Below, in pieces: positions 1,707-20,339 of a stretch of DNA of 64,000 nucleotides. The stretch is from a virus. The notes under the pieces were generated by a model. That model was not told the origin of the DNA. It saw only the letters and a list, made by a program, of their open reading frames with translations, and searched no databases. Made by a program: the position numbers and the translations under genes. How positions within the stretch are numbered: position 1 is the first letter of the stretch; the number at the start of each line of letters is the position of its first letter. The DNA lies in the IMG/VR virus record IMGVR_UViG_3300035188_001379, positions 1 through 64,000 of that record, one strand, 5' to 3'.

Positions 1707-2582
1707 ATGAAAATCGCTGAATTACTTGAAAACTACCGAAACTTAGACAAAGGAGCAAAGCCTGCGAAGTTTAAAGCAGCTTCACAGAAGATTGCTTTTG
1801 TCCCTAATCCAGAAATAGCCGCACAGCAACAGCAGCAACAGGCCGCCGCGCAGCAACCCGCCCCTCCTCAAGGAGCCCCTCAGCAGCAACAGATGCCTCC
1901 CCAACAACCGATGCCACCACAAGGCGCTCCTCCCGATCAGCAGGCAATGCCTCCTCAAGGCCCTCCACAGCAACCAATGCCACCACAAGGAGGCGCACCT
2001 CAACAACAGCAGATGTCCCCTCTTCTGCAAGAGCTCATGATGGCTGTACAGCAGCTACCACCTGAAATACAACAGCAAGTAATGCCGTTAATTCAGCAAA
2101 TCATGAGCATGCCACCAGAGCAGAGCGAGCAATACCTACAGTCCCTACTTCAACAGATGACAGCTATCCAGCAAGGACAAGGGGCACCTCAGCAACCAGG
2201 AATGGAAGCACAGGCCCAAGAAATGATGCTTGGTGGAGAACTTTCTCCTGAAGCCTATGCAGAACAACCAGCGCAAGATGAAGCTTCGCAAGAGGCCGAG
2301 AATGCTGAAGCTTCGGCAATTGAAGCTAAAAACGAATTAGATAATGTTCGAGTGAGTTTGACTGTGCGCGAGCTGTTAGACTTGATAGGTAAAGGGTCAG
2401 CCACAGCTTCTTTGCTGAAAGTTAAACAATTAGCTGACTCCCATAAGCAGAAAATGGAGCAAATTAAACAAAAAACCGAAGCAGATCAAACTCAGAAAGC
2501 TCAACAGCAGGCTGATCAGCAAACCTCAATGATGGGTGGAGGCATTTATCCTTCACCTATGGATGCTGGGGCCGCCCAATAA
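1707..2582 (+). CDS. Gln/Pro-rich low-complexity protein with N-terminal K-x-A motifs; putative internal head protein
   Basis: MKIA...QKIA followed by QQQQ/PPQG/QQPMPPQ repeats and an acidic coiled-coil-like C-terminus. Confidence 0.7.
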   Translation: MKIAELLENYRNLDKGAKPAKFKAASQKIAFVPNPEIAAQQQQQQAAAQQPAPPQGAPQQQQMPPQQPMPPQGAPPDQQAMPPQGPPQQPMPPQGGAPQQQQMSPLLQELMMAVQQLPPEIQQQVMPLIQQIMSMPPEQSEQYLQSLLQQMTAIQQGQGAPQQPGMEAQAQEMMLGGELSPEAYAEQPAQDEASQEAENAEASAIEAKNELDNVRVSLTVRELLDLIGKGSATASLLKVKQLADSHKQKMEQIKQKTEADQTQKAQQQADQQTSMMGGGIYPSPMDAGAAQ

Positions 2583-2586
2583 GTGT

Positions 2587-2997
2587 ATGGGAGACTTCAC
2601 AAAACTAGCAGCCTACTTAGAGTCTTTCGATAAAGACTCTCCAGGCTATGACACGGCATGCTTCATAAAAATGAAGATCGCTCAAGATTTGCAAGACTCC
2701 TCCACCGTCAACAACGGAGATGCAGAAGAACTTGAGGACAACGACATCACCATGGCTACTCCTGAGCAGCAAGCTCAGAATAATGTCGAGGGAAAGGAAA
2801 TGGCTGGAGCTTTTGCTGAGTTTGATGTTTTGAATAAACTCAAAGAAGAGAAGGAAGAGGTACGTATGCCTGACAAAAAAGACTCTGCAGGTAACACCGG
2901 ACTAGATGTCTCCACAGAGGAAGCTTTTGGAGATAACGTACAAAACCAAAAGCAAGCTTCGCTGTATTCTGTCCTCTTGAATAGACTTAAAAAATAA
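2587..2997 (+). CDS. acidic hypothetical protein with K-x-A motifs; putative internal head protein
   Basis: ATG at 2587 is preferred over the overlapping 2536 start; contains TKLAA, MKIAQ, QKQAS; stop overlaps the next ATG. Confidence 0.65.
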   Translation: MGDFTKLAAYLESFDKDSPGYDTACFIKMKIAQDLQDSSTVNNGDAEELEDNDITMATPEQQAQNNVEGKEMAGAFAEFDVLNKLKEEKEEVRMPDKKDSAGNTGLDVSTEEAFGDNVQNQKQASLYSVLLNRLKK

Positions 2998-4847
2998 TGG
3001 CTACCACAACAGTAGGGCGGGTAGTATTGAAGTTTTTTACTCCTGCACAATTCCATCATTTAATCGAAGATGCGGTGCTCGATAAAAAAGGCATCGCCAA
3101 GCTTTTTGCGGAGCTTGCCGAAAAAGCCCCTAACGAGTATTCAAAAATTGTATCTGACCTTACTCGCGCAGGTTTCGAGATCGCTACTAGACAAGGCACT
3201 TCTCTTACTTTAAGCGATCTGGTTTCGCCTGTAGACAAGGATAAACTATGGGATGAGTTTGAAACTTTCAAAACAGCCGTAGAGGCCGGTAAAGAGCATA
3301 AATCTGTTAAAGACCATAAAATTTTTGAAAAGTACAACACGATGATGTCAAACATCGAAAAAGAGATTTTGGCTAAAGGCTTAGCCAACAATCAGTCTTT
3401 GGCCAAGATTGTACTCGCAGGGTCTAGAGGTTCTCCAGCTCAGTACAGAGGCACGATAGCTACACAGGGTGTGGTTGTTGACGCTGAAGGGAAACCTAAG
3501 ATGGATATTCCAATTAAAAGTTCTTATGCTGAAGGATTGTCTCTCCCTGAATATCTCACCACTTCATTTGGTACACGATCCGGTGAAGTTTTAAAAAAAA
3601 TCTCAGTAGCGCAAGGAGGCTATGGAAGCAAACAGTTTGCTCGAGCACTAATGCCTCTTCAAGTTGTAGAGGCTGACTGCGAAACCCTGAACGGTATAGA
3701 CGTATCCATTGAAGACAGAGAGTCCGTTGGCGCTTTTTTAGCTAAAGCTGTAGGTAGCTATAATCGCAATAACGAGGTTACTTTAAAAATGCTGAATGAT
3801 TTGCATCACAAAGGAATCAAGCAAATCAATATTAGGTCATCGATGACTTGTCAGTCGAATAAAAAGCACCACTCAGGAGGGCTTTGCCAGATGTGTGTAG
3901 GCAAGAGAGAAAAGGGTATGGCAGCCATGGATAGCTACATCGGACTCGTTGCAGGTACAGCCGTAGCAGAACCTCTCACGGAGAGCGCGATGAAAGCCCG
4001 TCACTCAGGAGGAGCGGCCACCAGTCTTGGAGGGCAGCAAGGGTTTAAATTAATTAACCAGCTTGCAAATATTCCCAAAACCTTCGTAGGCAAAGCCCCA
4101 CTAGCTCAAGAAGACGGTATTGTCACAAAGCTTACTCCAGCAGATGCAGGAGGGCATTTCATTTCCGTTAATGACGAAGAGCACTATATAGGCATGGACC
4201 AAACCCCCAAAGTGACACTCGGGGAGCGCGTAGAGCAGGGGCAGGCATTAAGCACAGGACTAGTTGATCCTCGTGAAGTGGTACAGTATCGAGGAATAGG
4301 CGACGGTAGAAAATATTACATGGAGGCCATGAAAAAAGCCTTTGATGATAGTGGCCTGCCTGTAAACAGACGAAATTTTGAGCTGATAGCCAAAGCAGCT
4401 ATCGACCACGTAAAAATTACCGATCCTGAAGGCATAGGAAACTACCTACCTGACCAGGTAGTAAGTTATTCAGCTATTGAAAAAGATTATCAGCCCAGGG
4501 CATCTGCTAAGATGATGCGCACTGATCTAGCTTATGGAAAATACTTAGAAGAGCCTAAGCTGCATTATTCCATTGGAACTAAAGTAACCTCGGCGGTAAT
4601 AAAACATTTAAAAGAACATGAAGTGGAGGCTGTGCTAGTACATGAGCAGCACCCCAAATTCGAGCCTGTAATGGTGCGTCTTGTAGATGTACCTGAACAC
4701 CACGACGACTGGATGCATGTATTAAATAGTACTAACCTAGCCAAAAGGTTTGTTAATATGGTAAATAAAGGAGCTACGTCTGACACGCAAGGCTCTAGCC
4801 CTATACCAGGCCTTGCTTATGGCGTTGGCTTTGGTAAAAAGGATTAA
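2997..4847 (+). CDS. RNA polymerase beta' C-terminal half
   Basis: TTVGR, GSRGSPAQ, SSYAEGLSLPEYL..SFGTRSG (bridge-helix region), Zn-site Cys (EADC, MTC, CQMC), trigger loop AEPLTESAMKARHSGG, VNRRNFELI. Confidence 0.93.
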   Translation: MATTTVGRVVLKFFTPAQFHHLIEDAVLDKKGIAKLFAELAEKAPNEYSKIVSDLTRAGFEIATRQGTSLTLSDLVSPVDKDKLWDEFETFKTAVEAGKEHKSVKDHKIFEKYNTMMSNIEKEILAKGLANNQSLAKIVLAGSRGSPAQYRGTIATQGVVVDAEGKPKMDIPIKSSYAEGLSLPEYLTTSFGTRSGEVLKKISVAQGGYGSKQFARALMPLQVVEADCETLNGIDVSIEDRESVGAFLAKAVGSYNRNNEVTLKMLNDLHHKGIKQINIRSSMTCQSNKKHHSGGLCQMCVGKREKGMAAMDSYIGLVAGTAVAEPLTESAMKARHSGGAATSLGGQQGFKLINQLANIPKTFVGKAPLAQEDGIVTKLTPADAGGHFISVNDEEHYIGMDQTPKVTLGERVEQGQALSTGLVDPREVVQYRGIGDGRKYYMEAMKKAFDDSGLPVNRRNFELIAKAAIDHVKITDPEGIGNYLPDQVVSYSAIEKDYQPRASAKMMRTDLAYGKYLEEPKLHYSIGTKVTSAVIKHLKEHEVEAVLVHEQHPKFEPVMVRLVDVPEHHDDWMHVLNSTNLAKRFVNMVNKGATSDTQGSSPIPGLAYGVGFGKKD

Positions 4848-4868
4848 TTTGCATAGCTGAGATGGTTC

Positions 4869-4897
4869 TTGATATACAAGTAAAAAATTTATAAAAT
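4869..4897 (+). promoter_or_regulatory. sigma70-like promoter
   Basis: TTGATA-17 nt-TAAAAT upstream of the 4920 ORF. Confidence 0.6.
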
Positions 4898-4919
4898 TAA
4901 ACGAACACGACACTTTACT

Positions 4920-7166
4920 ATGCGCAACTCTACTTTACCGAAATACGCCGCAGACGACCAGATCGAGGGAGCTTTTTTTCAATTAGCCTATCAGAGGCTG
5001 CAAGATACCCTTAAAAACCTCATCCCATATTTGGTCGGGTTTGAGATTGTTAAAAAGAATGAAGACAACACCAAGGCTTTAGGTGTCTTCGGTTTTCGCT
5101 CTCAGTCAGGACAAATTTTGTTTGTTCCTGCATTTTTTATTAACGGCAAGGTAAAGAATCTTGATCTTCTGTATAGCAAGAACAACGAGCAGTTCTACCC
5201 GCTGAATGAAGACTTCGCTGAGATGTTCATTAAAGATGAGCTCTTAGGCTTAGGAGAAAACTCAAAGCAGCAAAGAGCTGATATTATGCGCGACGCCACT
5301 CAAGGCGACTACCGCCAAATGAGTGTTCCTCCTCGTACAGGACGCTACGCGATTGCTTCAGTTATAGACTACGTAAAAGATGGAGATAACTTAACAAAGC
5401 AGGCATTCACTAATTTGATTGAGGAAAATGCAGACTTTTGTGAGTCTGTCCTTCGTTTTTATCCTATAGAAAAAGTGGCGGAAGCTATTAAGCTCGAGGA
5501 TGGCGACAAGTACCGCAAAGGCGATAAAGGGGCTAAAAAAATTGACTTAGTTAAAGTCGTTAAGCCTACAGATAAAGATGAAGTAAAGAAACTTACCGAT
5601 CACGATAAGCAAACGCTGCTCACCCAAGGTTACGTTATTGTTGATGACCGCGAGGAAGGACAAAAGTCTTCTTACGGAGCTGTGGACTATATCAAGAAGT
5701 TCACCAATCCTACCGAATCCGGCTTCTACTCTTACATCACAAAGCTTGGAGGCTTACGCTACGGCTTGCTAATCGTGCGTCCTAAGCAGCTGCAGCAAGA
5801 CTTCGCTACGGATGATACACTTGTAATTGATTTGGACAGTAAAGAGGGAAACACTTACGTACGCGACCATAAGCAGGTCTTTATTAAAGATCAGATCAGA
5901 GTACAAGACTACTCAATCGTACACAAGATGATGGTTGACCCGGCAGAAGCCCGCCCAGGATATTCTAATGTTTATATTCTGATTAATGAGAATCTTAAGG
6001 CTACGCAACCCTTCCGGATTAATGCTAATTTTAAAGATGCCTCAGGTATTCGTCGTATTAGCGTAGAGCCTTGCACAGAGTATTGCGGGTGTGATTCCTA
6101 TCGTTCTGGTCCAAAAGATCGTCCAGGAAGCATTCATGATCTGCCTCGCGGCAATTTCTATGAACACCCTAAAAAATTGAGCGAGATCATGCTTGTCATG
6201 ACCAAGAAGCAAGGAGACCGCTTTGAGTACAAAGACAAATCTCTCTATGTCCCAGGCGGGTTTAAACTGCTCAAAATCAATCCTACAAAGCAGCATTTTG
6301 GAGAAACTTGGTATCCTTCTGACGGGTTATCTAAAAAAGATAAGGAAGACCAAGACAAGCGCAAGAGAGACCAGGAAGCAGAGAAAGAAAAGTACTTGAG
6401 AGGAGAACCAGGCTCTCCAAGCACTCTTCACGGTATTTTACGCGACAAGAATATTCTGCCGATGAATGTGCATACAAACGGCAGCGAATATTTTGTAGAT
6501 ATCAACGGAGCTAAAAAGAAGTACGATGACCCTCTCCAAGCAAAGATCGCTATGGTTGTTGACTTGGGGCTAGACCAGAAGGTTGCCTCAGAGCTGCTCG
6601 ACTCTTTGGTTCCGGGTTTTACAAAGAAAGGCCATATCAAACTAGCGTACACCGGAGACATCTATCCCCAGCCTTTTGAAGAGCAGCCCTATGTTAATGA
6701 GTTCGGTCAAAATACCTATGTTGGGGTAGGGCAGGAAAACACGCTACCTACTATGGATAGCTACACAGGCAATCCTACAAGACAAGACCTAGGGACCATG
6801 CCAGAGATCAAGGGGGTTGATCCTAAGTATGTGCAACAAGCGATTGAGTTGGCTCAGAACGGGCAAAAAGAAATCTTTGATACTCATATGATCGGAGCAT
6901 TGGCTAAGTACGTGGGTGTTGGGGATAAAATTGCCGAATACCTTCCTTCGCTAGTCGAATCCATGGACCGTCTCGGGCGTATTTTGTTTTTGCTTCACTG
7001 GGAAACAGATAAATTCAAGGAAATGTATGGTCGTGGAGACCTGCCTGCTTTAGTAGAGCTTGTCACTAACGTGTTTAAAAATACCGGAGACCTGGTTATC
7101 TTCTTGAAGAGGAAGTCGCCAGAGTTATCCATCAACATGACAAAGGCAGATAACTTAGATTTATAA
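4920..7166 (+). CDS. large head-associated or virion protein, function unknown
   Basis: 748-aa ORF opening the head module; PKYAA near the N-terminus and IKLAY before the C-terminal domain. Confidence 0.6.
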   Translation: MRNSTLPKYAADDQIEGAFFQLAYQRLQDTLKNLIPYLVGFEIVKKNEDNTKALGVFGFRSQSGQILFVPAFFINGKVKNLDLLYSKNNEQFYPLNEDFAEMFIKDELLGLGENSKQQRADIMRDATQGDYRQMSVPPRTGRYAIASVIDYVKDGDNLTKQAFTNLIEENADFCESVLRFYPIEKVAEAIKLEDGDKYRKGDKGAKKIDLVKVVKPTDKDEVKKLTDHDKQTLLTQGYVIVDDREEGQKSSYGAVDYIKKFTNPTESGFYSYITKLGGLRYGLLIVRPKQLQQDFATDDTLVIDLDSKEGNTYVRDHKQVFIKDQIRVQDYSIVHKMMVDPAEARPGYSNVYILINENLKATQPFRINANFKDASGIRRISVEPCTEYCGCDSYRSGPKDRPGSIHDLPRGNFYEHPKKLSEIMLVMTKKQGDRFEYKDKSLYVPGGFKLLKINPTKQHFGETWYPSDGLSKKDKEDQDKRKRDQEAEKEKYLRGEPGSPSTLHGILRDKNILPMNVHTNGSEYFVDINGAKKKYDDPLQAKIAMVVDLGLDQKVASELLDSLVPGFTKKGHIKLAYTGDIYPQPFEEQPYVNEFGQNTYVGVGQENTLPTMDSYTGNPTRQDLGTMPEIKGVDPKYVQQAIELAQNGQKEIFDTHMIGALAKYVGVGDKIAEYLPSLVESMDRLGRILFLLHWETDKFKEMYGRGDLPALVELVTNVFKNTGDLVIFLKRKSPELSINMTKADNLDL

Positions 7167-7175: not shown

Positions 7176-8135
7176 ATGCCTGACGAAGATCAATCTAGCT
7201 CCTACCTGGAAAGGTTGGCTGCTTTAGACTTACTACGTGAGAACATTCTTTTTTCTCAGCCTAGTAAGCTGAATATCTCAAATTCTTTGGAAGACCTGCC
7301 TGGCGTGTTTAGATCAGCTGCCCCGCTAACCAAAAACATTGTTCCTTCTGCAGCCATTATTTCAAAAGATCCAGAAGAGCGCCAAAAACAGATTAACGAC
7401 GCTATAAAGAAAATAAAGGCTTCCAAGAAGTCTAGTAAATCCTTAGGAGACGAAATAACTCATAATGTGTATAACTTAGGAGTTAAGGCATTACCTCTCA
7501 GCTTTTTACTTAGCTCTGCCTTTCATATAGCCTCTCCTAGAAACCCATTTTTCAATGGGACTCTTAGATCTCCTATAACCCCTATTAAAAATATTAAAAA
7601 ACTTTTAGATAGTCCTCGCTACAGAGGCTACCTAGCCAGAAGCGCAGCAAAAGATTCTTTAATAGGTGCAGGGATGGGAGCAGCAGCAGGCGCTATTTAT
7701 CCCATAGTTTCAAACAAGGTGGACCCTTCAGATAAGGCGCTTGAGGAGGCCGCCACAATAATGCAAAACGAGCCTTTGCTTACTAGCTTACCTCCGGCAG
7801 AAGCCCTTAGCGCGATGCGCAACGGACCCAGTTCTGAGCCTATAAATAAATTAAAAAATGTTGCAATAGGTGCCGGTACTGGCTTAGGCTTTGGAGCGTT
7901 AGGATCCTTGTCATCGACAGGAATAAAAGCTTTAGGATATGGTGCAAGTAATCTGTATCGTAAGCTGACTGGGCAAGAATTAAATAAAAACGTCTTAAAA
8001 AGGCTTTCGTCAGGACTACTAAAAGATCTCAAAGTCACTTTACCTCTTGGTGCAGGATTGGGGGCCGTTTCTGGCTTAGCTACTAAAAATTTAAGTGATT
8101 ATGACCAGCAAAAAACTGACACCGATCAGACTTAA
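7176..8135 (+). CDS. glycine-zipper-containing putative virion (ejection) protein
   Basis: GAGMGAAAGAI, GAGTGLGFGALG and GAGLGAVSGL hydrophobic Gly-rich helices; basic protein. Confidence 0.55.
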   Translation: MPDEDQSSSYLERLAALDLLRENILFSQPSKLNISNSLEDLPGVFRSAAPLTKNIVPSAAIISKDPEERQKQINDAIKKIKASKKSSKSLGDEITHNVYNLGVKALPLSFLLSSAFHIASPRNPFFNGTLRSPITPIKNIKKLLDSPRYRGYLARSAAKDSLIGAGMGAAAGAIYPIVSNKVDPSDKALEEAATIMQNEPLLTSLPPAEALSAMRNGPSSEPINKLKNVAIGAGTGLGFGALGSLSSTGIKALGYGASNLYRKLTGQELNKNVLKRLSSGLLKDLKVTLPLGAGLGAVSGLATKNLSDYDQQKTDTDQT

Positions 8136-9214: not shown

Positions 9215-10684
9215 ATGGAAGAGCCTAACATTCTCATCAAAACAGCCCTCTCAGATGCAGTTCAGCAGGTGAACTCAGGCGTATCTCCTACCGCAGCGCT
9301 TAAAAAAGTTGCTACCGATTTGGATCTGAATCCCAACTATATCCAGCGTACAGGAGAAGCCTTGAACGTTGCATTACACTATAAACATTTTAAGACAGCC
9401 TCCGACAGATCTATTGACTTTGAGATTGCCGATATTCCCAAAGCTATTGAGGACGTTTTTTCTTCTCGCACTAAAACAGCAGCAGAACAGACCTCAGAGT
9501 ATTTTTCATCCATAGACGCTAACGAACCTGTTTTCAATTACAACCGGATGTTAAGCAATCCAGTGTATAAGCAGGCTTTCATGGAAATTTCTTCGGCTCC
9601 TGAAACACATGACAGCTTTGCTACCACACTAAAAACAGTTTACGAAAAGTCTGCGAACTATATTCAGAAGCTTGCAAAGCAGGCAGACGAAGCCGAAGTG
9701 CATAAGACTGCAGCGGAGCTGGATTTAAATCAGTCTTTTTCAGCTTTGTGTGATGAGTTTAAGAAAGATGCGGCTTACCGAACATCTTTTGAAGAATTTG
9801 AATCGCAAGTTTTCTCAAAGCACGGAAGCGCTGCAGTAGAGTATCTCGACCTTATTCATAAAACCGCAGGACTTGTTGACGACAGAGGAGTGCATGACTC
9901 TAAGTATATTATGTTTAACCCCTGCAAAGAAGCCTCTCTGTTTGACTCGCTGATGGCTTCAGCTGAGCGAATGGTAGCAACAGAGAAGACCGCACAAGAA
10001 GCCCAGCAAAACCTAGCCTTCGAAAATTCCTTTTTGAAAGAGTGCAACACCCTACTGGGCAAGACAGCAGAAAAAAAAGAAGAATCTCCTGAGCGCGAAA
10101 AAGCAGAAGAGACTTCTGATGAGAAATCTGAAGATACCGGCGAAGAGAACCTTGAAGAGCAGGACCCTGTTATGGCGGCGGTTAAAAAAAAAGCCTCAGA
10201 CGCTAGCTTCAGCGTAGCTCCGAAATATGACAAAGACCCTGTGCTTGCTGAATGTATGGAGAAAGAAGCTTTTTTGGGGTCTCTAACGAATATGATGAGC
10301 AGTCTGATAGCAGAACCAGTGCAAGCAGCTTTTACCCATTCTTTTAAAGGCTCTCCGCAGACTTCTCCTGGAATACGACCCAATCTTACTTTAGATAATA
10401 TGGAGCGTAGGCTTTTGCTACAAGAGCTTATGCTGACAGACCCGATCTTATCTAAAGTTAATCCTGCTAAAGTAGCCAGGGCCTTTGAACAAATACTCAG
10501 GCTTTCTCCAGAAATTTCAAAACAAAAGGAGGTGGTCCGTGCTGAGTTACGTGCAATGGTGGCATCTCAAGCGTTAAGTAAATATGACGCCGAAATGATG
10601 ACCAAGCTGGATGTAGGAATGCTTAAAAGCAGGGTAGCTACCCAGCAGTTTAATAAAGGATTTATCGATCACTTCAAAGTTTAG
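9215..10684 (+). CDS. K-x-A-rich helical head or core protein
   Basis: Seven KTA plus about ten other K-x-A motifs in 489 aa, within the head module. Confidence 0.65.
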   Translation: MEEPNILIKTALSDAVQQVNSGVSPTAALKKVATDLDLNPNYIQRTGEALNVALHYKHFKTASDRSIDFEIADIPKAIEDVFSSRTKTAAEQTSEYFSSIDANEPVFNYNRMLSNPVYKQAFMEISSAPETHDSFATTLKTVYEKSANYIQKLAKQADEAEVHKTAAELDLNQSFSALCDEFKKDAAYRTSFEEFESQVFSKHGSAAVEYLDLIHKTAGLVDDRGVHDSKYIMFNPCKEASLFDSLMASAERMVATEKTAQEAQQNLAFENSFLKECNTLLGKTAEKKEESPEREKAEETSDEKSEDTGEENLEEQDPVMAAVKKKASDASFSVAPKYDKDPVLAECMEKEAFLGSLTNMMSSLIAEPVQAAFTHSFKGSPQTSPGIRPNLTLDNMERRLLLQELMLTDPILSKVNPAKVARAFEQILRLSPEISKQKEVVRAELRAMVASQALSKYDAEMMTKLDVGMLKSRVATQQFNKGFIDHFKV

Positions 10685-12811: not shown

Positions 12812-14071
12812 ATGTCTAAAGAATATACAAACTTTAAGCAGGACCTAGCTAATCCTGAAGCAGGTTTAAACTCGGACTTGTATCACGCGTTGTCGCCGAT
12901 TGTTTCTCGAGGACCCTCTGGACCTTCTTCTAGAGAAGAACAACAGAAGCTTGATAGTTTGAGGGAGGATGTACGTAAAGGTATCGTGGGACTTGAGTAC
13001 ATGGCGGGGTTAAAAAAGAATAAAGGAGAAACTTTTTATGATGAGCATCCTGTACAAGCGTTAACTACTGACGCGCTTGGCAACGCATCGATTTTAGGGG
13101 CAGGTCTAACTGGTGGAGGTATGCTTTTGAACAGTATTAGACAAAAGCAGAATTTGGATAAAGTTATGCCTGCCGCTATGGCTCGTATGGGTAATACGCC
13201 TGACAAGGATCTTTCAAACCCTGAAGCACTGCTTAATCCTAGAGAAGGTACTGTCCGAGGAGACATAGCTAAAATATACGGGGACCCGGAGAGTTCAACT
13301 AGGATGCAGCTCATCGACAGACTGTCTGATGTTGCACCAAATGACCCAAATTCCTTGTCTAGTAAATTGTTAAGCGCAGATACTGCCGAGGCTAAGGCGA
13401 CTAGGAAACATCAGAAATTGTTGAAACAATTGAACGCGCAGTTATTAACTGCTGCAGACGACAAAGAAGCCAATAAGATAAGCAAACAGATTGCAGGAGC
13501 TGAAAAGCTGTACGAGGAACTCCGCAAAAATAACGCTAAAGCTAAAGGCGAAGTTCTAGCTGCGGCAAGGGCGTCTCAAGGAGATAAATACTTGAAGAAC
13601 CACGTCAATTTTCACGAGGCATTGACAAGAGCTAAGGAAAAAGGAGGATTCAGCTCGCCTGTAGGTTCAGGTTTAAACTTACCTGAGTTCATTGCCCCAG
13701 ATAAACACCAAGGCTTAGTCGATTTGATCGAGAACATGCAGCTAACAAAAGCCCATCCTGGGTTTAATAGAGATTTACTTCTGCAGTCTGTTTCCGATTA
13801 TTTAGATGACCCTGCCGAGCTAGCCAAGTTTGAGAGAGTTAGCTTACCCAAGATCATGAGCGCAGATCATCAAGGGTCAGGCATCCGTAGGTTTCTTTCG
13901 CGAAATAAGTTCCCTATAGCTGCAGGTGCTGCCACTGCAGCCGGAGGGGCAGGTCTCTATTACCTACTCAAAGCCATGCAAGACAAGATGTACTCCAAGG
14001 ATAAAGTAAAGGATTGGAAAAAGACTCTACTTAAGTCTAAAGGAGATTTTGACGCCGCAAACCAAATCTAA
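12812..14071 (+). CDS. putative ejection protein with hydrophobic Gly/Ala helices
   Basis: ILGAGLTGGGMLL and IAAGAATAAGGAGLYYLL segments with a coiled-coil middle. Confidence 0.55.
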   Translation: MSKEYTNFKQDLANPEAGLNSDLYHALSPIVSRGPSGPSSREEQQKLDSLREDVRKGIVGLEYMAGLKKNKGETFYDEHPVQALTTDALGNASILGAGLTGGGMLLNSIRQKQNLDKVMPAAMARMGNTPDKDLSNPEALLNPREGTVRGDIAKIYGDPESSTRMQLIDRLSDVAPNDPNSLSSKLLSADTAEAKATRKHQKLLKQLNAQLLTAADDKEANKISKQIAGAEKLYEELRKNNAKAKGEVLAAARASQGDKYLKNHVNFHEALTRAKEKGGFSSPVGSGLNLPEFIAPDKHQGLVDLIENMQLTKAHPGFNRDLLLQSVSDYLDDPAELAKFERVSLPKIMSADHQGSGIRRFLSRNKFPIAAGAATAAGGAGLYYLLKAMQDKMYSKDKVKDWKKTLLKSKGDFDAANQI

Positions 14072-14076: not shown

Positions 14077-15525
14077 ATGTATAGAGGACTCATTAAATTT
14101 AGTGCTACCGATGACTGGCGTTGGGATGTTGACCCTGTGCAATTGATACACAACGTAAACACGTTGACCAAAGCTGGAGCAGACAACACAGAACTACGCA
14201 CTGAAAAAACAGCAGGACAAACAGACGCTCTCGTTATTGCTCTGGGCGCTTATGAAGGGACAGGAGCAAATCGGAATGGGGATATCTTTAAAGAGGCAGA
14301 ATGTCTCAAGAACTATAAGACATTTGTTAAGTCTGGAAGCAAAGGTAAAGATGGCAAGTACGACGGGCGCGCTTTAAACAGGCATCATAAAAATAAACCG
14401 GAAGACCCTAAGTACGGTAATATTAAAGCAGCTACTTACAATAATAAGATGAAGCGTATCGAGCTGATTATAGGGCTCGACAACGACAAGTGCGCAGAAG
14501 AAATCCAGAAATTGGCTGAAGGAAAGCAGATTAATGTAAGTATGGCAGCTAAGGTAGCCTACGATAAATGCACGTGGTGTGGACATGAGGCAAAAGACGA
14601 CAACCACCGTTGCGAACACATACCTAAAAAACTAGGAGAGATTAACAAGCAAGGTGAGATGTGTAGTATGGAAAATATGAACCCTCGCTGGTTCGAATTA
14701 TCTATTGTAGGCAGACCTGCCGATCGGATAGGTATGTCCCTCAAGCTCGCCTCTGATAACGCTTACATCAAAACAGCTAGCGACTATAAAACACTATATC
14801 CCGGCTTTGTTGCGCCAGAAGATACTCAGGAGTATATCTCGATATCTAAGTATGCTCAGGAAAAACGTAGATTGCTTAAGAAGCTTTCTGCTATGGAAAA
14901 GCATATCGAAGCAATCGCTGAAGCAGGCCCTAAGAACTCAAAAGAAAAGTACATTTCCGAGCAGAAATCAAAAATCAGTCATGGTGACGATATTTCTGAC
15001 GATACTTTAGAAGAGCTCAGGAAGTTTGAACCATCAAAGCTGCTCAGAGCCTTAGCTGATGAAGGGATTGTTTTTTCTCCTAAAGATTTTGTAAAATATC
15101 TTTTCGGTACGAAAAACATCTCAAATTCTGAGGACATGTTCAGTAAGATTAAAAAGCAGCTTCCTTCTATGTTTTCAGACCTAGAAGAAGATGGAGATGA
15201 CGTTGTAAATGATGAGAAGTATGAGCCGTCTGGGTCCGATATTATGCCTAAAGGTATCTTGAATATGGTGAGAGGACTGTTTGACGATCATTCTCTTTTT
15301 GATAAACCTGTGCACGGCAGGATTATGAAAATAACCATAATCAAAAAAATGCCTTCCTCTAAGCTGAGCCGCAAATCAGAGAATGAAGGCCACACGAAGG
15401 AAGCCTCGATATCTGAGCTAACAAGACAATACGCAGCGTATAAATTAGCTGCTTTTAGATATTTAGATAGTAAAGATAAACTAGACGAAGACACCATGTA
15501 CAATATTCTATTGCAAAATAGATAA
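14077..15525 (+). CDS. prohead (capsid maturation) serine protease with a Cys/His insert and C-terminal extension
   Basis: NRNGDIF, RHH (candidate catalytic His), INVSM (candidate catalytic Ser), FELSIVGRPAD (cf. ELSxVxxPA in HK97-type proteases), CTWC...RCEH; lies upstream of scaffold and MCP. Confidence 0.8.
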   Translation: MYRGLIKFSATDDWRWDVDPVQLIHNVNTLTKAGADNTELRTEKTAGQTDALVIALGAYEGTGANRNGDIFKEAECLKNYKTFVKSGSKGKDGKYDGRALNRHHKNKPEDPKYGNIKAATYNNKMKRIELIIGLDNDKCAEEIQKLAEGKQINVSMAAKVAYDKCTWCGHEAKDDNHRCEHIPKKLGEINKQGEMCSMENMNPRWFELSIVGRPADRIGMSLKLASDNAYIKTASDYKTLYPGFVAPEDTQEYISISKYAQEKRRLLKKLSAMEKHIEAIAEAGPKNSKEKYISEQKSKISHGDDISDDTLEELRKFEPSKLLRALADEGIVFSPKDFVKYLFGTKNISNSEDMFSKIKKQLPSMFSDLEEDGDDVVNDEKYEPSGSDIMPKGILNMVRGLFDDHSLFDKPVHGRIMKITIIKKMPSSKLSRKSENEGHTKEASISELTRQYAAYKLAAFRYLDSKDKLDEDTMYNILLQNR

Positions 15526-15531
15526 AAATAC

Positions 15532-15560: not shown

Positions 15561-15584
15561 TTACCTACAACAGCAATACGTATT

Positions 15585-16721
15585 ATGCCATCAAACCCTA
15601 AAAATATTTTAGCCACCTTATTGGCGAAGCAAGCCGCAGGTGAAATTCCTATGTCTGCCGGAGAAGAAGCCGTACACGAGGAGGCTGAAACTCCTCAGGA
15701 AGAAGCTCTTGAGCACCTCCCAGGACAATATGAAGAAGGCGCAGTTGAGCCTGGTGAGTTAGAAGGTGGGGAAGATGCAGACGCTAGAGTGGAGCAATTA
15801 CTGGCTCAGCTTTCGCCAGAAGAACTGGATCATTTGACTGAGCTTTTAGCTGAGGACATGTCTGGAGGTGAAGAACCTGCTGCAGAAATTGATGAAGAAG
15901 AATCTGTGGAAGACCCTGCAGAACTAGCTCAGCTGATTGAGCAGCATCTCGCCAATTCGCCCGAAGCTAATCCAGAAGATGCCGACCCAGAAAAAATGGC
16001 AGCTTTAGCCTTTGTGAAATCTGCCTCTTACATCGAAGGTTTTATCGAGCAGGCGTTAGCTCATGGAGCCTCAGTGAAAGAAGCTGTCGACATTTATGAC
16101 ACGGCCCTTTCTAGAAGCCTCGACTCCTTAAATATTTACAAAACAGCCGCCAGAGGTAAATACGCAAGACGCAGAGCAAACGCATCTCGCCGCGCCTCCG
16201 CGCCTCAGGCTGCTCCTTCCGCAGCCAGCAAAGCGCAGGAGGCTGCTCCCACAAAAAAGCCCGACTATGAAGGACCGTCTATGGGCAGCAAAATTAAACA
16301 TCACCTAGAGGATCATCCAGAAACTGCCGTAGCTCTAGGTGCGGGTGCGGCCGCCACAGCCGCAGGCGGAGCCTACTTAGCTACCCGCAAAAACAAAGAC
16401 AAAGAAGACTCCGACGAGAAGACTGCAGCTTATTATGAAGGAGTACTTGAGCGCGCTCGAGAGTACGGACTCTCAGACCATGAAGCTGTACAGATTGTTA
16501 AGTCTGCTACGTTAGGGCAGATGCGTAACCCGAAGGTGGTAGCTGCTCTAAGAGCTGCTGCTTCGTCAGCGTCCTCTGCAGCAAAAAAGGCCCCAAAAGG
16601 GGAGGCAGATAAGCTATTACAAAGAGCACGTATCGCCGCTATAAAAAACAAAGCTTTGATTGCTGGCGGTGCTGGCTTAGCCGGAGGGGCCGCATTAACT
16701 TCGGCCCTTTCTGATGACTAG
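15585..16721 (+). CDS. modular internal head polyprotein (acidic N-terminus, two GF-K-A modules, two basic hydrophobic peptides)
   Basis: KSASYIEGFIEQALAHG...KTA and KTAAYYEGVLERAREYG...KSA modules flanking Arg/Lys/Ala-rich peptides. Confidence 0.65.
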   Translation: MPSNPKNILATLLAKQAAGEIPMSAGEEAVHEEAETPQEEALEHLPGQYEEGAVEPGELEGGEDADARVEQLLAQLSPEELDHLTELLAEDMSGGEEPAAEIDEEESVEDPAELAQLIEQHLANSPEANPEDADPEKMAALAFVKSASYIEGFIEQALAHGASVKEAVDIYDTALSRSLDSLNIYKTAARGKYARRRANASRRASAPQAAPSAASKAQEAAPTKKPDYEGPSMGSKIKHHLEDHPETAVALGAGAAATAAGGAYLATRKNKDKEDSDEKTAAYYEGVLERAREYGLSDHEAVQIVKSATLGQMRNPKVVAALRAAASSASSAAKKAPKGEADKLLQRARIAAIKNKALIAGGAGLAGGAALTSALSDD

Positions 16722-16732
16722 TAACAAAAGTA

Positions 16733-16761
16733 TTTACAAGCAGCTAAAAACAAAATAAACT
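16733..16761 (+). promoter_or_regulatory. sigma70-like promoter
   Basis: TTTACA-17 nt-TAAACT. Confidence 0.5.
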
Positions 16762-16782
16762 TCAACAATAGAAACTACAAAT

Positions 16783-17724: not shown

Positions 17725-17735
17725 GGTTGCTTTTT

Positions 17736-17894: not shown

Positions 17895-18264
17895 GGTAGC
17901 AACTTTCGTAAACGTCGCTTTGTCTGAAATTAGTCAGCTCTCTAAAAAAGTTGCCGCTTACGAAAGCAAAAAAGCTGAAGAAGACAGACAAGAAAACATT
18001 GCCCTAGAGGGAGCTTTAAAAAAAGCTGCGGAGGCTATGTATAACTCTGATTTCATTAACGACGAGGAAGAAAAAACTTTGTTTGTTAAGAAAGCCAAAG
18101 AAGACGCCCTGTATCTGGCTAAAGTGGTTGAGCGCGTATGTAACGCAGCCGACGTAGCTTACATGGGAAAATCTGCTTCCGTTAAATCCTCAAACCAGTC
18201 AGATGATCCTGTCATGCGCAGAGCTTTTGGCTACGACAATAACTATAGTTTATTAGATGACTAA
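17872..18264 (+). CDS. second scaffold-like or head assembly protein
   Basis: 130 aa, helical, with KQA/KVA/KKA/KSA motifs; ends in DDPVMRRAFG. Confidence 0.6.
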   Translation: MTKQALDKVATFVNVALSEISQLSKKVAAYESKKAEEDRQENIALEGALKKAAEAMYNSDFINDEEEKTLFVKKAKEDALYLAKVVERVCNAADVAYMGKSASVKSSNQSDDPVMRRAFGYDNNYSLLDD

Positions 18265-18420
18265 ATATTCTTAAAATATAGTTGACTATTTGATTATTTT
18301 TTCCGACAATATTTATATTACTTTGCATTAGACCATTACTGAATTGACCTTGGCCGGTTATCGGGGTGGAAAGCATAGACAGACAAACCAAACAACAAAA
18401 CACAAAGAAAGAAAAGACAT

Positions 18421-18933
18421 ATGATTAACTTCAAAAAAGGTCCTGCTCTTAGCTTACACCAAGTTAACTACGTAGGCCCGATCGACACTACTGACACCAC
18501 TCCAGCGACAGGTATTGTTTCTGGTATGGTTGTTCGCATTAATGCAGATGGTTCTGTTGGCACAGGAGCTACAAGCGACACTGCTGACGTGAATACTCTG
18601 TACGGGTTCGCAATCAACAACGCTAACGCTGGAGATGTGATTGAATCTGGTAAGATTGGTGTATTTGCTCTCGACGGTATGTCGGTAGTAGAAACCGATC
18701 AAACTGCTGAAACAATCACCTCGACCACCTACCCTATCGGCAAGGCTCTCTCTGTAGACACCGCTGGTAAGGTCAAGGCAGTAAACACTTCCACATACAC
18801 TGGCAAGATCATTGGATGGGTTGAAGGGATTCGCTCAATTCCTGCCCAATCTAACGGATCGACCGTGATCAACGGGCGTTCGTTCACGTATCCTGTCAGC
18901 ACAACCGTGCTGGGAATTAAGCTCGCCGTCTAA
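18421..18933 (+). CDS. capsid decoration (cement) protein
   Basis: 170-aa beta-rich Thr/Gly/Val protein immediately upstream of the MCP (SGMVVRINADG..., GKIIGWV). Confidence 0.7.
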   Translation: MINFKKGPALSLHQVNYVGPIDTTDTTPATGIVSGMVVRINADGSVGTGATSDTADVNTLYGFAINNANAGDVIESGKIGVFALDGMSVVETDQTAETITSTTYPIGKALSVDTAGKVKAVNTSTYTGKIIGWVEGIRSIPAQSNGSTVINGRSFTYPVSTTVLGIKLAV

Positions 18934-18959
18934 CCTTAACCTGAGAAATAACAATTAAT

Positions 18960-19937
18960 ATGGAAAAAATCGCAAATCAGAGAGTATTTAACGACACGTT
19001 CGTTGAAATGGTTAAGGCTGGCGAAGAAAAGAAGGCCGCTGTCAGCGCACAGTCTTTTACCCGCAATAAGCTTCGTGAAGAAAGCTTCACAGAAAAGATT
19101 ATCACCCCTATCGACATCAGCAATGATGACCTCGACAAGGCTGAAAATCCTGAGCTGCTGGTTAAGTGGAACGATCGTGAGCCTGATACAGCCCCAGCTG
19201 TAACAATTCCTCTCGGCGTTGTGCCTGATATGTACCAGTTTGCTGGAACTCGTTATCCTTCTTACTTCACACGTATCACGTCTCCGAAGTACAACAAGGA
19301 CATCGACAACCTCCGCGGTTATGACTACGACATCCGTGCGATCATGCTCGAGTTGTCCACAAAGGATATCGCCACTGAGATCGACTCGCGCTTCATGGCT
19401 CGCGTTGATAGCATCATTGGCCCTGTCAACCAGGGGAACGTCCTCAATGGAACAGGTACGACTGTCCTCAGCGCGCTGCCGCAGAACGTTACAATCGCAG
19501 GAGGCATCACCCGTGAAAACGTGGCGGAAGCTTTCAAGGTGATTAAGCGTCTCCGTGTTCCATTTGGTCCCTCTCAGCCTGATGGCGGAGAAACCAAGGG
19601 AGTCATGTTGATGAACAATGTCACTGCTGACGACTTCGTCAAGATGAGCCGCTCTGAAGTTGGTGGTGACCTTGCGCAGGATATGTTTGTGAACGGTCTC
19701 CCTTCCAAGACCCTCTTGGGAGTCAAGCCGATCTATACCATCAAGCGTGATCTCGTCCCTGACGGTGTTATCTACCTGTTCTCTTCCGAAGAATTCTTCG
19801 GCAAGTACTACAGACTGCAGCCTCTCACAGTGTTCATGAAGAACGAGGCGTACTTCCTTGAGTACTTCCAGTACATGAACCTCTCGCTCGCGATTGGTAA
19901 CGTGAAGGGTGTTGTCAAGGTTGACTTCAACGGCTAA
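18960..19937 (+). CDS. major capsid protein (HK97-fold, putative)
   Basis: 325 aa; follows protease, scaffold and decoration genes; codon bias typical of high expression; strong terminator after it; starts MEKIA. Confidence 0.85.
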   Translation: MEKIANQRVFNDTFVEMVKAGEEKKAAVSAQSFTRNKLREESFTEKIITPIDISNDDLDKAENPELLVKWNDREPDTAPAVTIPLGVVPDMYQFAGTRYPSYFTRITSPKYNKDIDNLRGYDYDIRAIMLELSTKDIATEIDSRFMARVDSIIGPVNQGNVLNGTGTTVLSALPQNVTIAGGITRENVAEAFKVIKRLRVPFGPSQPDGGETKGVMLMNNVTADDFVKMSRSEVGGDLAQDMFVNGLPSKTLLGVKPIYTIKRDLVPDGVIYLFSSEEFFGKYYRLQPLTVFMKNEAYFLEYFQYMNLSLAIGNVKGVVKVDFNG

Positions 19938-19963
19938 GTAGCCACTTCAACCTAGTAAGTTAT

Positions 19964-19990
19964 AAAAGGGGACCTTCGGGTCCCCTTTTT
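19964..19990 (+). terminator. Rho-independent terminator
   Basis: AAAAGGGGACC-TTCG-GGTCCCCTTTTT: perfect stem, cUUCGg tetraloop and U-tract. Confidence 0.9.
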
Positions 19991-20006
19991 GCTGCCTATA
20001 ACCTAC

Positions 20007-20035
20007 TTGATATAACGTACACGCTGATTTATAAT
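20007..20035 (+). promoter_or_regulatory. sigma70-like promoter (likely leaderless mRNA)
   Basis: TTGATA-17 nt-TATAAT; ATG begins 8 nt after the -10 element. Confidence 0.65.
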
Positions 20036-20042
20036 CAATATT

Positions 20043-20339
20043 ATGAGCCTAGACACCAACATCCTTTCTGAGTTTGACTCTTTTATTAAAAAGTATGCAG
20101 CTCAGATGTCTCCTAACCAACCAGAGCCAGGGAATGCGCCTACTTCTGTAGTGCATCCTCAGGTAAATGCAGGCAATAGTCTACCTAGAGAAACGCAGGC
20201 TCCTCCTCCTGTCAATAATTCCACATCAGGAGAAATACATAATCCTAGCGACGGTGCGAGTGGAGGAGGACCTAAGCCTGTAACAGCACCTAAACAGCCC
20301 CTAAGCATGTCAGGCTCATTCATTAAAAATTCTAAATAA
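20043..20339 (+). CDS. Pro-rich small protein with an N-terminal helix ending in KYA
   Basis: 98-aa ORF; ILSEFDSFIKKYAAQ followed by a disordered Pro/Ser/Gly tract. Confidence 0.55.
   Translation: MSLDTNILSEFDSFIKKYAAQMSPNQPEPGNAPTSVVHPQVNAGNSLPRETQAPPPVNNSTSGEIHNPSDGASGGGPKPVTAPKQPLSMSGSFIKNSK

Follow-up and report, generated by a model that had tools for sequence, protein, structure and literature searches.

A Lys-x-Ala motif enriched in the head module of an uncultured phage and its probable recognition by the prohead protease

Head-module genes and their K-x-A content

The window analysed here is a stretch of 64,000 nucleotides (positions 1 to 64,000 of IMG/VR record IMGVR_UViG_3300035188_001379) from the 184-kb genome of an uncultured phage. 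ORFs are named by their first position, and those that bear on the motif K-x-A are listed in table 1 together with the sites in the protease.

Table 1. ORFs and protease sites considered, with positions in the window (K-x-A counts are observed versus expected)
Feature	Coordinates	Strand	K-x-A count or basis
ORF between RNA polymerase genes, 291 aa	1707..2582	+	5 versus 2.0, marginal
Virion protein, 748 aa, homologue of Arash gp218	4920..7166	+	9 versus 3.5
Head-module protein, 319 aa, motif-avoiding	7176..8135	+	0 versus 2.8
Head-module protein, 489 aa, family unknown	9215..10684	+	17 versus 4.8, seven KTA
Protein, 126 aa	11088..11468	+	5 versus 1.1
Fusion protein, 443 aa	11475..12806	+	tag HMM, E 3e-15
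Head-module protein, 419 aa, motif-avoiding	12812..14071	+	1 versus 4.6
Prohead protease, 482 aa	14077..15525	+	phrog_18299 head maturation protease, E 1.8e-9
K223-L-A-S, candidate autocleavage (release) site, end of catalytic domain	14743..14754	+	near-invariant in 32 homologues
K232-T-A-S (IKTA site)	14770..14781	+	kept here and in relatives of at least about 70% identity
K258-Y-A-Q, second conserved site, start of C-terminal helical part	14848..14859	+	
K441-E-A-S and K456-L-A-A, candidate C-terminal tail sites	15397..15453	+	conservation in homologues
Protein, 378 aa, leader ending AKQA at residue 17	15585..16721	+	9 versus 4.9
Scaffold-like protein, 313 aa	16783..17724	+	16 versus 5.1
Protein, 130 aa	17872..18264	+	8 versus 2.2
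Major capsid protein, 325 aa	18960..19937	+	tblastn to Arash major capsid protein, E 2e-26
ORF, 98 aa, KKYA at residues 16-19	20043..20339	+	single site, alone not significant
Protein, 352 aa, near terminase gene	54103..55161	+	15 versus 2.4, densest in genome

The K-x-A excess is carried by seven proteins, including the product of ORF 54103-55161. Genome-wide, only 7 of 223 ORFs have p ≤ 0.01 for the motif (54103, 9215, 16783, 17872, 14077, 11088, and 4920), and the remaining 217 ORFs hold 290 copies versus 304 expected. The initial annotation had put the number of copies at about 15 in the 313-aa scaffold and about 17 in ORF 9215, close to the 16 and 17 that we counted. In the scaffold-like protein, the sites are in register across five orthologues with variable flanks; the final one (KLA) comes 20 residues before the C-terminus, and cutting at all sites would give pieces of 8-59 aa. 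This protein also has an internal repeat of ~50 residues. Orthologues of ORF 9215 have 15-18 sites, the N-terminal one reading KTA, KIA, KHA, KSA, or KQA across relatives, and the conserved leader of ORF 4920 ends in K-x-A at residue 10, where six relatives have KYA, KQA, KSA, or KRA. ORF 11088 starts with a 32-residue tag flanked by K-x-A (tag HMM E 2e-17, aa 6-38). ORF 54103 lies outside the range 1707-20339 to which the initial annotation was confined. Its 115 homologues average 14.8 sites versus 2.5 expected, with conserved positions and a variable middle residue, and its AF2 model (pLDDT 84.5) is mostly helical, many sites falling inside helices rather than loops.

All of the short leaders that had been listed as ending in the motif were found (MKIA, PKYA, IKTA, YKQA, AKQA, TKQA, MEKIA, and KKYA). 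K-x-A occurs inside the first 20 residues in 10 of the 18 ORFs of the 1505-20339 block (2.5 expected) and in 22 of the 205 ORFs elsewhere (~18 expected). The major capsid protein has the motif only in its first 27 residues (MEKIA, KKA/KAA), its body (aa 28-325) being free of it. Two weak copies of the tag are present in ORF 15585 (aa 147-176 and 281-308), and residues 256-443 of ORF 11475 begin at the tag and align to the whole of a 187-aa ORF in a relative (L006, 8095-8658); this tag-plus-domain unit is fused in the window and a separate gene in the relative, the junction coinciding exactly with the tag. ORF 1707, which had been counted among the head genes, has the MKIA leader and all five of its K-x-A within the first 30 residues, but its enrichment is marginal and it has no family match; it is a candidate head protein. 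Other head-module proteins avoid the motif: orthologues of ORF 12812 have 0-2 sites versus 2.5-6.3 expected, and the depleted head-module set that includes ORFs 12812 and 7176 has 8 copies versus 20.4 expected (P 0.0016 in a post hoc test, the set having been defined after data inspection).

Enrichment, register, and conservation of the motif

Our head set consisted of 15 head-module ORFs and ORF 54103, which had already been flagged by the per-ORF scan. It contains 103 K-x-A versus 44.3 expected (z ~9), the first rank among 1600 gapped residue pairs. The initial observation holds, and the signal exceeds what had been stated. Local shuffles in which composition was held within 10-30 residues gave z values of 9.4-9.8, with a maximum of 67 copies in 1000 shuffles; for global and local shuffles together the range is 8.8-9.8. 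In the same set, other spacings (KA 36 observed/44.5 expected, KxxA 51/44.2) and the reversed order (AxK 39/44.3) are flat, substituted pairs have no excess (RxA 16/21.5, KxG 20/28, KxS 21/31), and rival cutting motifs are near expectation (LxE 39/32, IxE 13/18, AxE 53/41), with V/L/I-x-A and A/S/G-x-E at expectation. No excess of K-x-A was seen in tail genes (46 versus 51.5 expected) or in genes beyond 64 kb (189 versus 200). The sheath, in which the motif had been described as sparse, has 2 copies versus 2.9 expected, and the tape measure, whose richness in Lys and Ala had been a concern, has 23 versus 19.5; therefore, neither is enriched. The motif had also been proposed to predict the cargo set of the capsid. 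Because bare K-x-A occurs 281 times, at chance level, in the other ORFs, the tripeptide alone cannot do so; prediction is possible only from site density, from the extended form, from an N-terminal position, or from the 32-residue tag.

The signal resides in the protein and not in the DNA. Lys codons at head-set sites are evenly used (AAA:AAG = 52:51), all four Ala codons occur, and the DNA pattern for K-x-A is found 103 times in frame and 8 and 15 times out of frame. Site flanks are as dissimilar as random segments (7.2% versus 6.6% identity). The effective signal goes beyond the tripeptide, its fuller form being (L/I/M/F)-x-K-x-A with S, E, or A next; numbered with Ala as P1, the preferences are L/I/M/F at P5, E/V at P4, and S/E/A at P1', and they reach P1' and P2'. 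In five orthologue sets, retention is 0.83 for Lys within K-x-A versus 0.63 for other Lys and 0.74 for Ala versus 0.60 for other Ala, the middle residue is at background (0.62), and the K-x-A pair ranks first of 44. Judged by this retention, K-x-A is under selection as a unit, with P2 free.

In each of five metagenomic relatives K-x-A ranks first or second among motifs, and it does so in the same orthologues, with conserved positions and a free middle residue. It ranks first in head genes of two distant cultured relatives, Salmonella phage Arash (46 versus 21.1 expected) and Vibrio phage D69 (51 versus 22.4), which stand at only about 27% identity and give the same P6-P1' logo. The most K-x-A-enriched ORFs of the whole Arash genome are again head genes, and its four most enriched non-protease ORFs have L/I/M/F at P5 in 31 of 33 sites. 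Phage G has 8 copies versus 2.4 expected in gp19 and 7 versus 2.8 in gp21, and gp17 of actinophage Finch has 17 RxA versus 6.5 expected and 12 KxA versus 6.8. The motif accompanies this protease type across five very different phage lineages. As a positive control, the same blind scan of T4 gp68/21/22/23/24 placed IxE first and, when limited to gp68/21/22, LxE second; the scan recovers the known (I/L)-x-E rule of T4 gp21. The virion proteome of Arash has 80-100% tryptic coverage of head-module proteins, motif-rich ones included, in a sample of 116 proteins that comprise many non-structural enzymes, and it reports only per-protein coverage and peptide and spectrum counts, from which cleavage sites are not readable (PMC10585845). 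Such coverage means that uncut copies of motif-rich proteins are present in that sample.

The protease, its own sites, and the reading of the motif

ORF 14077 has 11 K-x-A versus 4.2 expected; its catalytic domain is N-terminal (about aa 18-219), and a helical middle part separates it from the C-terminal tail. Its AF2 model matches T4 gp21 (PDB 5jbl) with Z 9.0 over 139 aa, the VZV protease (1vzv) with Z 6.6, and the HCMV protease with Z 4.5; on this modelling, the protein belongs to the serine proteases of T4 gp21/herpes assemblin fold. Sequence similarity between ORF 14077 and T4 gp21 is not detectable, and their catalytic residues did not align residue by residue. Six proteases with 23-53% identity all have H104, S155, C165, C168, C179, and H181.

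The protease has conserved [K/R]-x-A(-S) sites both behind its catalytic domain and ahead of its tail, in or next to linkers that are disordered in the AF2 model. K223-L-A-S falls within a segment of pLDDT < 50 (aa 214-230), and its aligned counterparts are KVAN in Arash, KVAS in D69 and phage G, and RKAS in Finch. K258-Y-A-Q comes after a disordered stretch (aa 242-255); all 32 homologues have S257, K258, and A260, and among six distant proteases A260 is invariant and K-x-A at K258 is kept in five. K441-E-A-S borders a disordered linker (aa 436-441). In the 32 homologues K441, A443, and A458 are near-invariant and Y455 and K456 invariant, and cuts at these two tail sites would take off the last 24 to 39 residues. 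The IKTA site (K232) that had been taken to divide the protease domain from its extension does exist, but it is kept in close relatives only and has other residues in more distant homologues; the family-wide boundary sites are K223-L-A-S and K258-x-A260. Enrichment, register, conservation, distribution, protease fold, and site positions are shown by this analysis.

We consider that the prohead maturation protease ORF 14077 probably recognises its substrates by (L/I/M/F)-x-K-x-A with S, E, or A after it. Given the enrichment, the conservation, the protease fold, the boundary sites, and the T4 control, cutting after K-x-A is the best reading of the motif and a likely one. That this protease cuts after K-x-A had been proposed in the initial annotation, and fold, conservation, and boundary sites make it the best-supported explanation, but the bond is placed by analogy, the P3-x-P1 rules of gp21-type and herpes proteases suggesting a scissile bond after Ala (P1 = Ala). 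From all this we infer the occurrence of cutting, its bond, its enzyme, and an order of events. Inside the newly built prohead, the protease would cut after Ala, with Lys at P3 and Ala at P1. It would release its own catalytic domain at K223-L-A/S and K258-Y-A/Q and lose its own C-terminal tail at K441-E-A/S and K456-L-A/A (slashes mark the cuts). Four scaffold- or core-like proteins (ORFs 16783, 9215, 17872, and 54103) would be cut into peptides of 1-69 residues that could then exit the shell, and short N-terminal leaders and 32-residue tags would be trimmed off proteins staying in the head. The motif is avoided by the proteins that would need to outlast the cutting in the same prohead, namely the capsid protein body, ORF 12812, ORF 7176, and the RNA polymerase pieces.

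It is unlikely that K-x-A with a hydrophobic P5 is instead an uncut docking or capsid-targeting motif that binds the scaffold core, the shell interior, or the protease, any cutting obeying another rule. The motif does head short leaders and the 32-residue tag in the manner of a targeting signal, many ORF 54103 sites are within predicted helices, and motif-rich proteins have near-full tryptic coverage in the Arash virion sample; however, docking leaves unexplained the 14-18 copies per scaffold-like protein with their spacing of 15-30 residues, the conserved copies at the protease's own domain boundaries, and the avoidance of the motif by co-resident proteins, and there is no other enriched motif (LxE, IxE, AxE, V/L/I-x-A) to act as the cutting rule. 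In T4, the capsid-targeting leader ends in a cut site; therefore, targeting and cutting are compatible. Improbable too is a cleavage signal read at another bond, for example after Lys, or by another phage or host protease. Because the preferences reach P1' and P2', the register is not fixable from sequence, and both bond and enzyme are assigned indirectly, but the P3-x-P1 spacing agrees with every rule known for this fold, and the motif travels with the protease type in five lineages and sits at the protease's boundaries.

We regard it as very unlikely that the Lys of K-x-A is a modification acceptor, for example for phage ubiquitin-like conjugation (compare the SUMO consensus hydrophobic-K-x-E). 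This genome (at 86442-87077), Arash, and D69 all encode an E1-like ThiF, and the position just before Lys favours a hydrophobic residue or Val. Phage G and Finch, however, have no ThiF match and still keep [K/R]-x-A-S at the protease boundary and the motif excess in the protease and the neighbouring gene; Finch has Arg, which cannot accept such a conjugate, for Lys at many sites; 16 acceptor sites would serve no evident purpose in a scaffold due to exit the capsid; and the fusion or split of a module at the tag fits cutting. That the excess is a functionless by-product of composition, helical amphipathic periodicity, internal repeats, or a DNA motif is scarcely credible, since, although the motif-rich proteins are Lys/Ala/Glu-rich and helical and one has its repeat, the excess survives the shuffles in one register and one order, the flanks are non-homologous, codon use is unbiased, the signal is frame-specific, the Lys/Ala-rich tape measure has no excess, and conservation of the motif as a unit extends to distant phages.

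Comparison with known systems

Cutting after K-x-A by ORF 14077 would have its closest known parallels in T4, in phiKZ and SPN3US, and in the herpesviruses. T4 gp21 is like ORF 14077 in fold, a P3-x-P1 rule likewise marks the scaffold gp22 many times, the protease, and the leaders of internal head proteins, and the statistical footprint under the blind scan is the same. T4 differs in having Leu/Ile at P3 and Glu at P1, whereas the window phage has Lys and Ala, and, unlike gp21, the 482-aa window protease carries an inserted Cys/His cluster within the domain and extends by 260 residues at its C-terminus. The T4 capsid protein loses a 65-residue segment, whereas that of the window would lose a few N-terminal residues at most.

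The phages encoding phiKZ gp175 and SPN3US gp245 are also large myophages with virion RNA polymerase genes beside head genes, and they have multiple motif copies in propeptides. Both proteases undergo C-terminal autocleavage at their own motif (PMC5694885). At the A-x-E sites of SPN3US, P4 is preferably V and P1' preferably S (PMC10052503, PMC5694885), and both preferences are also seen at K-x-A sites of the window. The phiKZ (S/A/G-x-E) and SPN3US (A-x-E) proteases all cut after Glu (PMC5694885), whereas in the window A/S/G-x-E is at expectation and K-x-A is the enriched pair. If cut, the Lys-x-Ala code would depart from the cut-after-glutamate rule known so far from T4- and phiKZ-type phages.

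Herpesvirus assemblin (UL26 family) is related to ORF 14077 in fold. Its sites are V/L-x-A|S (the bar marks the cut), for example YLQA|T and VQA|S in PrV, in an R-site/M-site layout (PMC4498786). The order of catalytic domain, site, helical part, site, and short C-terminal tail is shared (PMC4498786), and the ORF 14077 sites that follow the catalytic domain and precede the tail agree with this layout and with the autocleavage of phiKZ and SPN3US. Ala at P1 is shared as well, and Ser at P1' is common in Arash, D69, phage G, and the K223 site of the window. P3 is Val/Leu/Ile in assemblin sites, whereas it is Lys in the window phage, where V/L/I-x-A is unenriched, and Arg in the actinophage. The herpes scaffold is nested in the protease gene and that of the window phage is a separate gene, and herpes substrates have one or two sites, whereas those of the window phage have many.

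Head Genes and Their Lys-x-Ala Motif

The window covers the initial 64 kb of one virus contig of 184,465 bp, and ORFs are named here by their start coordinates. Within the head module the order is protease (ORF 14077), ORF 15585, scaffold-like protein (ORF 16783), two small ORFs (17872 and 18421), and major capsid protein (ORF 18960); the protease gene adjoins scaffold and major capsid genes as in prohead proteases of the gp21/assemblin fold, and the protease-to-capsid order is the same in Salmonella phage Arash and in those metagenomic relatives whose fetched loci extend to the capsid gene (L003 and L005–L007). No near relative of the head module turned up when 50,697 phage records were searched by megablast. 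Among cultured phages, Arash and Vibrio phages D69, D181, and D148 come closest (~27–29% identity in capsid protein and protease), and more than 200 homologues of the protease were found in metagenomes on contigs of up to ~215 kb.

The homologue of the Arash RNA polymerase beta gene maps across the contig end (182739–184421) and the window start (80–1474), and the contig is therefore cut inside the beta gene. Three small ORFs (1505–2997) lie between the beta and beta' genes; in this interval ORF 1707, which matched no Pfam or PHROGs family, carries five K-x-A (Lys-any residue-Ala) motifs in its first 30 residues and none after them. The fetched relatives have a gene of 112–136 aa immediately upstream of beta'.

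Coordinates of the features, with K-x-A counts where an ORF departs from expectation
Feature	Position (strand)	Length	K-x-A observed	K-x-A expected	Remarks
RNA polymerase beta gene	80–1474
ORF 1707	1707–2582 (+)	291 aa			between RNA polymerase genes
RNA polymerase beta' gene	2997–4847
Head module	4920–20339
ORF 4920			9	3.5
ORF 7176	7176–8135 (+)		0	2.8
ORF 9215			17	4.8
ORF 11088			5	1.1	tag at N-terminus
ORF 11475					tag internal
ORF 12812	12812–14071 (+)		1	4.6
ORF 14077, prohead protease	14077–15525 (+)	482 aa	11	4.2
Cys/His cluster in protease domain	14491–14664				residues 139–196
ORF 15585					two weak copies of tag
ORF 16783, scaffold-like	16783–17724 (+)	313 aa	16	5.1
ORF 17872			8	2.2
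ORF 18960, major capsid protein					tblastn to Arash capsid protein, E 2e-26, 28% identity
Contractile-tail and baseplate module	after head module
ORF 25829	25829–26092 (+)	87 aa			tag at N-terminus, HMM E 7e-18
ORF 54103	54103–55161 (+)	352 aa	15	2.4
Large terminase	57025–58740 (−)

An initial annotation proposed that the prohead protease cuts after the Ala of K-x-A, and its counts of the motif proved correct on recount. We scanned blindly for every one of the 1600 residue pairs with gaps of 0–3 in a head set of 16 ORFs, of which 15 come from the head module and one, ORF 54103, lies outside the range originally considered and was added after a per-ORF scan had flagged it. K-x-A ranked first, with 103 occurrences against 44.3 expected (z 8.8), followed by a runner-up pair at z 5, and the same scan of the tail gene set gave nothing comparable. 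Neither other registers and orders (KA 36 vs. 44.5, KxxA 51 vs. 44.2, AxK 39 vs. 44.3) nor near variants (RxA 16 vs. 21.5, KxG 20 vs. 28, KxS 21 vs. 31) are in excess in the head set. As a positive control, the identical scan of T4 gp68, gp21, gp22, gp23, and gp24 placed IxE first (22 vs. 8.9), with LxE second if only gp68, gp21, and gp22 are scanned, which is the experimentally known gp21 rule.

Composition, repeats, and a DNA motif were each considered as the source of the excess and are contradicted by the controls. K-x-A retains a z of 9.4–9.8 under shuffles that keep composition within 10–30 residues, and the tape measure, whose richness in Lys and Ala had been put forward as a check on the claim, is not enriched (23 vs. 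19.5). The 12 residues on either side of each site resemble those of other sites no more than randomly chosen segments resemble each other, which rules out repeats as the cause. The sites show ordinary codon usage, and the DNA pattern was counted 103 times in frame versus 8 and 15 times out of frame; the signal therefore lies in the protein.

Genome-wide, 7 of 223 ORFs are enriched at p ≤ 0.01 (4920, 9215, 11088, 14077, 16783, 17872, and 54103), and the other 217 show no departure from expectation (290 vs. 304). Pfam and PHROGs are uninformative for ORFs 54103, 1707, 9215, 16783, 17872, and 11088. The motif falls within the first 20 residues in 10 of the 18 ORFs of the 1505–20339 block versus 2.5 expected, and at the chance rate elsewhere. 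A depleted set, chosen post hoc and composed of the capsid body, ORFs 7176, 8095, 10688, 12812, and 18421, and the polymerase pieces, contains 8 copies versus 20.4 expected (P 0.0016). ORFs 12812 and 7176 avoid the motif, as do their orthologues in relatives, and their products may be stable head components that need protease resistance.

ORF 54103, which adjoins the terminase gene, has the highest K-x-A density of the genome, and its 115 homologues average 14.8 copies versus 2.5 expected. Its predicted model is confident (pLDDT 84.5) and mostly helical, with many of the sites inside helices, a caveat for the proposed cutting, and fold searches yielded nothing beyond generic helical bundles and viral proteins without a name. 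In the scaffold-like protein a unit of ~50 residues (G-x-P-G ... P-E-N ... acidic stretch) occurs in two copies, both of which end in K-x-A and around which relatives gain or lose extra sites.

A tag of 32 residues with the pattern F-x-x-G-F-(V/I/L)-K-R-A ... L-(L/F)-K-x-A was found in four places in the window and on several proteins beyond 127 kb. It was rejected as the source of the excess in ORFs 9215, 16783, and 54103, none of which its HMM matches. Residues 256–443 of ORF 11475 start at the tag and correspond to a whole stand-alone gene in a relative, a junction that would fit a role of the tag as the mark of a processing joint. ORF 25829 directly follows the sheath gene, which places a head-type tag within the tail module.

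The Protease and Its Own Sites

Residues 64–227 of ORF 14077 match the profile phrog_18299, "head maturation protease" (E 1.8e-9). Sequence and profile searches of Pfam and PDB gave no match to the protein, which therefore represents a distant branch. An AF2 model built with 32 homologues (pLDDT 71) has a beta-rich N-terminal domain, of which residues 18–213 best match T4 gp21 (5jbl; Z 9.0, rmsd 3.6, 139 of 165 residues), followed by the VZV protease (1vzv; Z 6.6) and the HCMV protease (8j3s; Z 4.5), with unrelated folds at 5.3 or less. The match to gp21 required a wide VIA search beyond Foldseek, which ranked 5jbl first in PDB at a weak E value of 0.58. On the basis of this model, the protein is predicted to share the gp21/assemblin prohead serine protease fold (MEROPS clan SH, with T4 gp21, phiKZ gp175, and herpes assemblin). 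The candidate catalytic residues Ser155 and His104 do not vary among 32 close and six distant homologues, and hhalign of the protease family with T4 gp21 gave no usable alignment for mapping catalytic residues.

Cys165, Cys168, Cys179, and His181 are invariant in six proteases of 23–53% identity, and C139 and C196 in the close family. This cluster inside the protease domain looks like a zinc-binding insert, which is not known from T4 gp21.

In all six proteases [K/R]-x-A directly follows the catalytic domain (KLAS, KLA within LKKLAA in L004, KVAN, KVAS, KVAS, and RKAS), and a second site, K258-x-A260, is present in five of the six. K441-E-A and K456-L-A, which precede the last 24 to 39 residues, are conserved in close homologues. 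The IKTA site originally noted after the protease domain does exist (K232), but is kept in close relatives only. In the AF2 model the conserved sites after the catalytic domain and before the C-terminal residues fall within linkers of low confidence or at their margins. The family as a whole (113 homologues) averages 11.8 K-x-A versus 4.5 expected.

Conservation of the Motif in Other Phages

In five related contigs, whose proteases are 51–78% identical, K-x-A is the top or second motif in every case and in the same orthologues. Orthologue alignments revealed that Lys within K-x-A is kept at 0.83 versus 0.63 for other Lys of the same proteins and Ala at 0.74 versus 0.60, the middle residue being kept at background (0.62), and that pair retention is highest for K-x-A among 44 pair types. 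The leader sites likewise vary in the middle residue: one family has KTA/KIA/KHA/KSA/KQA, another KYA/KQA/KSA/KRA. In L004, the metagenomic relative that is most distant, ~8 kb of additional genes (11377–19296) separate the protease gene from the scaffold-like gene, and several of these additional genes start with a leader of the F-x-x-G-F-x-K-x-A type; this locus also shows a strong GxxxG excess (86 vs. 40).

Blind scans of the head genes of Arash (46 vs. 21.1) and D69 (51 vs. 22.4) again placed K-x-A first, followed by LxK, MxK, and LxxxA. Site logos from the window phage, Arash, and D69 agree on G/A at P6, L/I/M/F at P5, E/V at P4, then K, x, A, and S/E/A, and Ser directly after the motif is enriched in all three (12 vs. 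3.2 in Arash, 18 vs. 3.9 in D69, and 14 vs. 7.4 in the window). The top K-x-A ORFs of the Arash genome are gp220, gp225, gp223, ORF 174466–175335, which is rich in the motif similarly to ORF 54103, and the protease gp222; the four that are not the protease have L/I/M/F at P5 in 31 of 33 sites. The suggestion that the bare motif could predict the cargo of the capsid fails because it is too common, with 281 copies at chance level in other ORFs; in this genome the seven rich proteins carry the extended form at 14 times the density found elsewhere (12.9 vs. 0.9 per 1000 residues). The pattern extends to more distant phages with this protease type: Bacillus phage G carries K-x-A excesses in gp19 (8 vs. 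2.4) and gp21 (7 vs. 2.8), and gp17 of the actinophage Finch has 17 RxA versus 6.5 expected plus 12 KxA versus 6.8. A related rule may hold in phage G and in an actinophage. In the phage G paper gp19 is called a head maturation protease, and no cut sites are given.

Readings of the Motif and Comparison with Known Proteases

The motif excess on which the initial proposal rested was thus confirmed and extended, and K-x-A is probably the cutting code of the prohead protease, cutting being the best available interpretation and a step that we infer. That K-x-A is instead a docking motif that stays uncut would fit the leaders, but not the density of sites, the protease's own sites, or the avoidance, and we consider it unlikely; a similarly small chance attaches to a cleavage signal that acts at a different bond or through a different enzyme. 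In a further, very improbable reading, the Lys of hydrophobic-(x)-K-x-A would act instead of, or in addition to, its part in cleavage as the acceptor for the phage-encoded ubiquitin-like conjugation system, so that head-core proteins would receive a tag at a SUMO-like consensus while the head is assembled. This genome, Arash, and D69 have an E1-like gene, but phage G and Finch keep the boundary sites without one and Arg often replaces Lys in Finch. The E1-like ThiF domain (PF00899), which scores above the Pfam cut-off, is encoded at 86442–87077 in this genome, where the match contains two internal stop codons, at 176809–177291 in Arash, and at 173999–174484 in D69, and was not found in phage G or Finch.

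Cutting at K-x-A can be tested directly in Arash or D69, since there are relatives in culture and mass-spectrometry data on virions are available. The Arash virion proteome, from a sample that held 116 proteins, reached 80–100% tryptic coverage of the motif-rich proteins (PMC10585845); the paper and its supplement give per-protein coverage and counts and no peptide-level or cleavage data, so cleavage is unreadable from them. If cutting at K-x-A is true, a Lys-x-Ala rule, of which we found no prior report in the literature on phage protease rules, would operate in a large, globally distributed clade of 180–215 kb phages including Arash and D69. Together with the tag, the extended motif and the density at which it occurs would offer a way to propose from sequence alone the fates of head proteins (disposable core or scaffold, trimmed and kept, or protected) in phages with unannotated head genes.

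Characterized phage proteases of the T4/phiKZ type all cut after glutamate, and those of phiKZ and SPN3US undergo C-terminal autocleavage at the enzyme's own motif (PMC5694885). The short N-terminal leaders ending in K-x-A on ORFs in or near the head module (10 of 18 vs. 2.5 expected) resemble T4-type capsid-targeting leaders. The window's head proteins have no x-E excess of the T4/phiKZ type (LxE 39 vs. 32.3, IxE 13 vs. 17.8, AxE 53 vs. 41.3, SxE 29 vs. 26.0, GxE 24 vs. 21.6), whereas IxE stands at 22 versus 8.9 in T4 itself. Nor is the aliphatic P3 of the herpes type enriched (VxA 25 vs. 28.3, LxA 45 vs. 50.8, IxA 26 vs. 26.3, vs. KxA 103 vs. 44.3). The layout of the protease, domain-site-helical part-site-tail, mirrors that of herpesvirus UL26, which has R and M sites (PMC4498786). 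The motif ends in a fixed Ala, the presumed P1; if the rule is true, this fold would carry a new specificity here, one that shares Ala at P1 with the herpesvirus enzymes.
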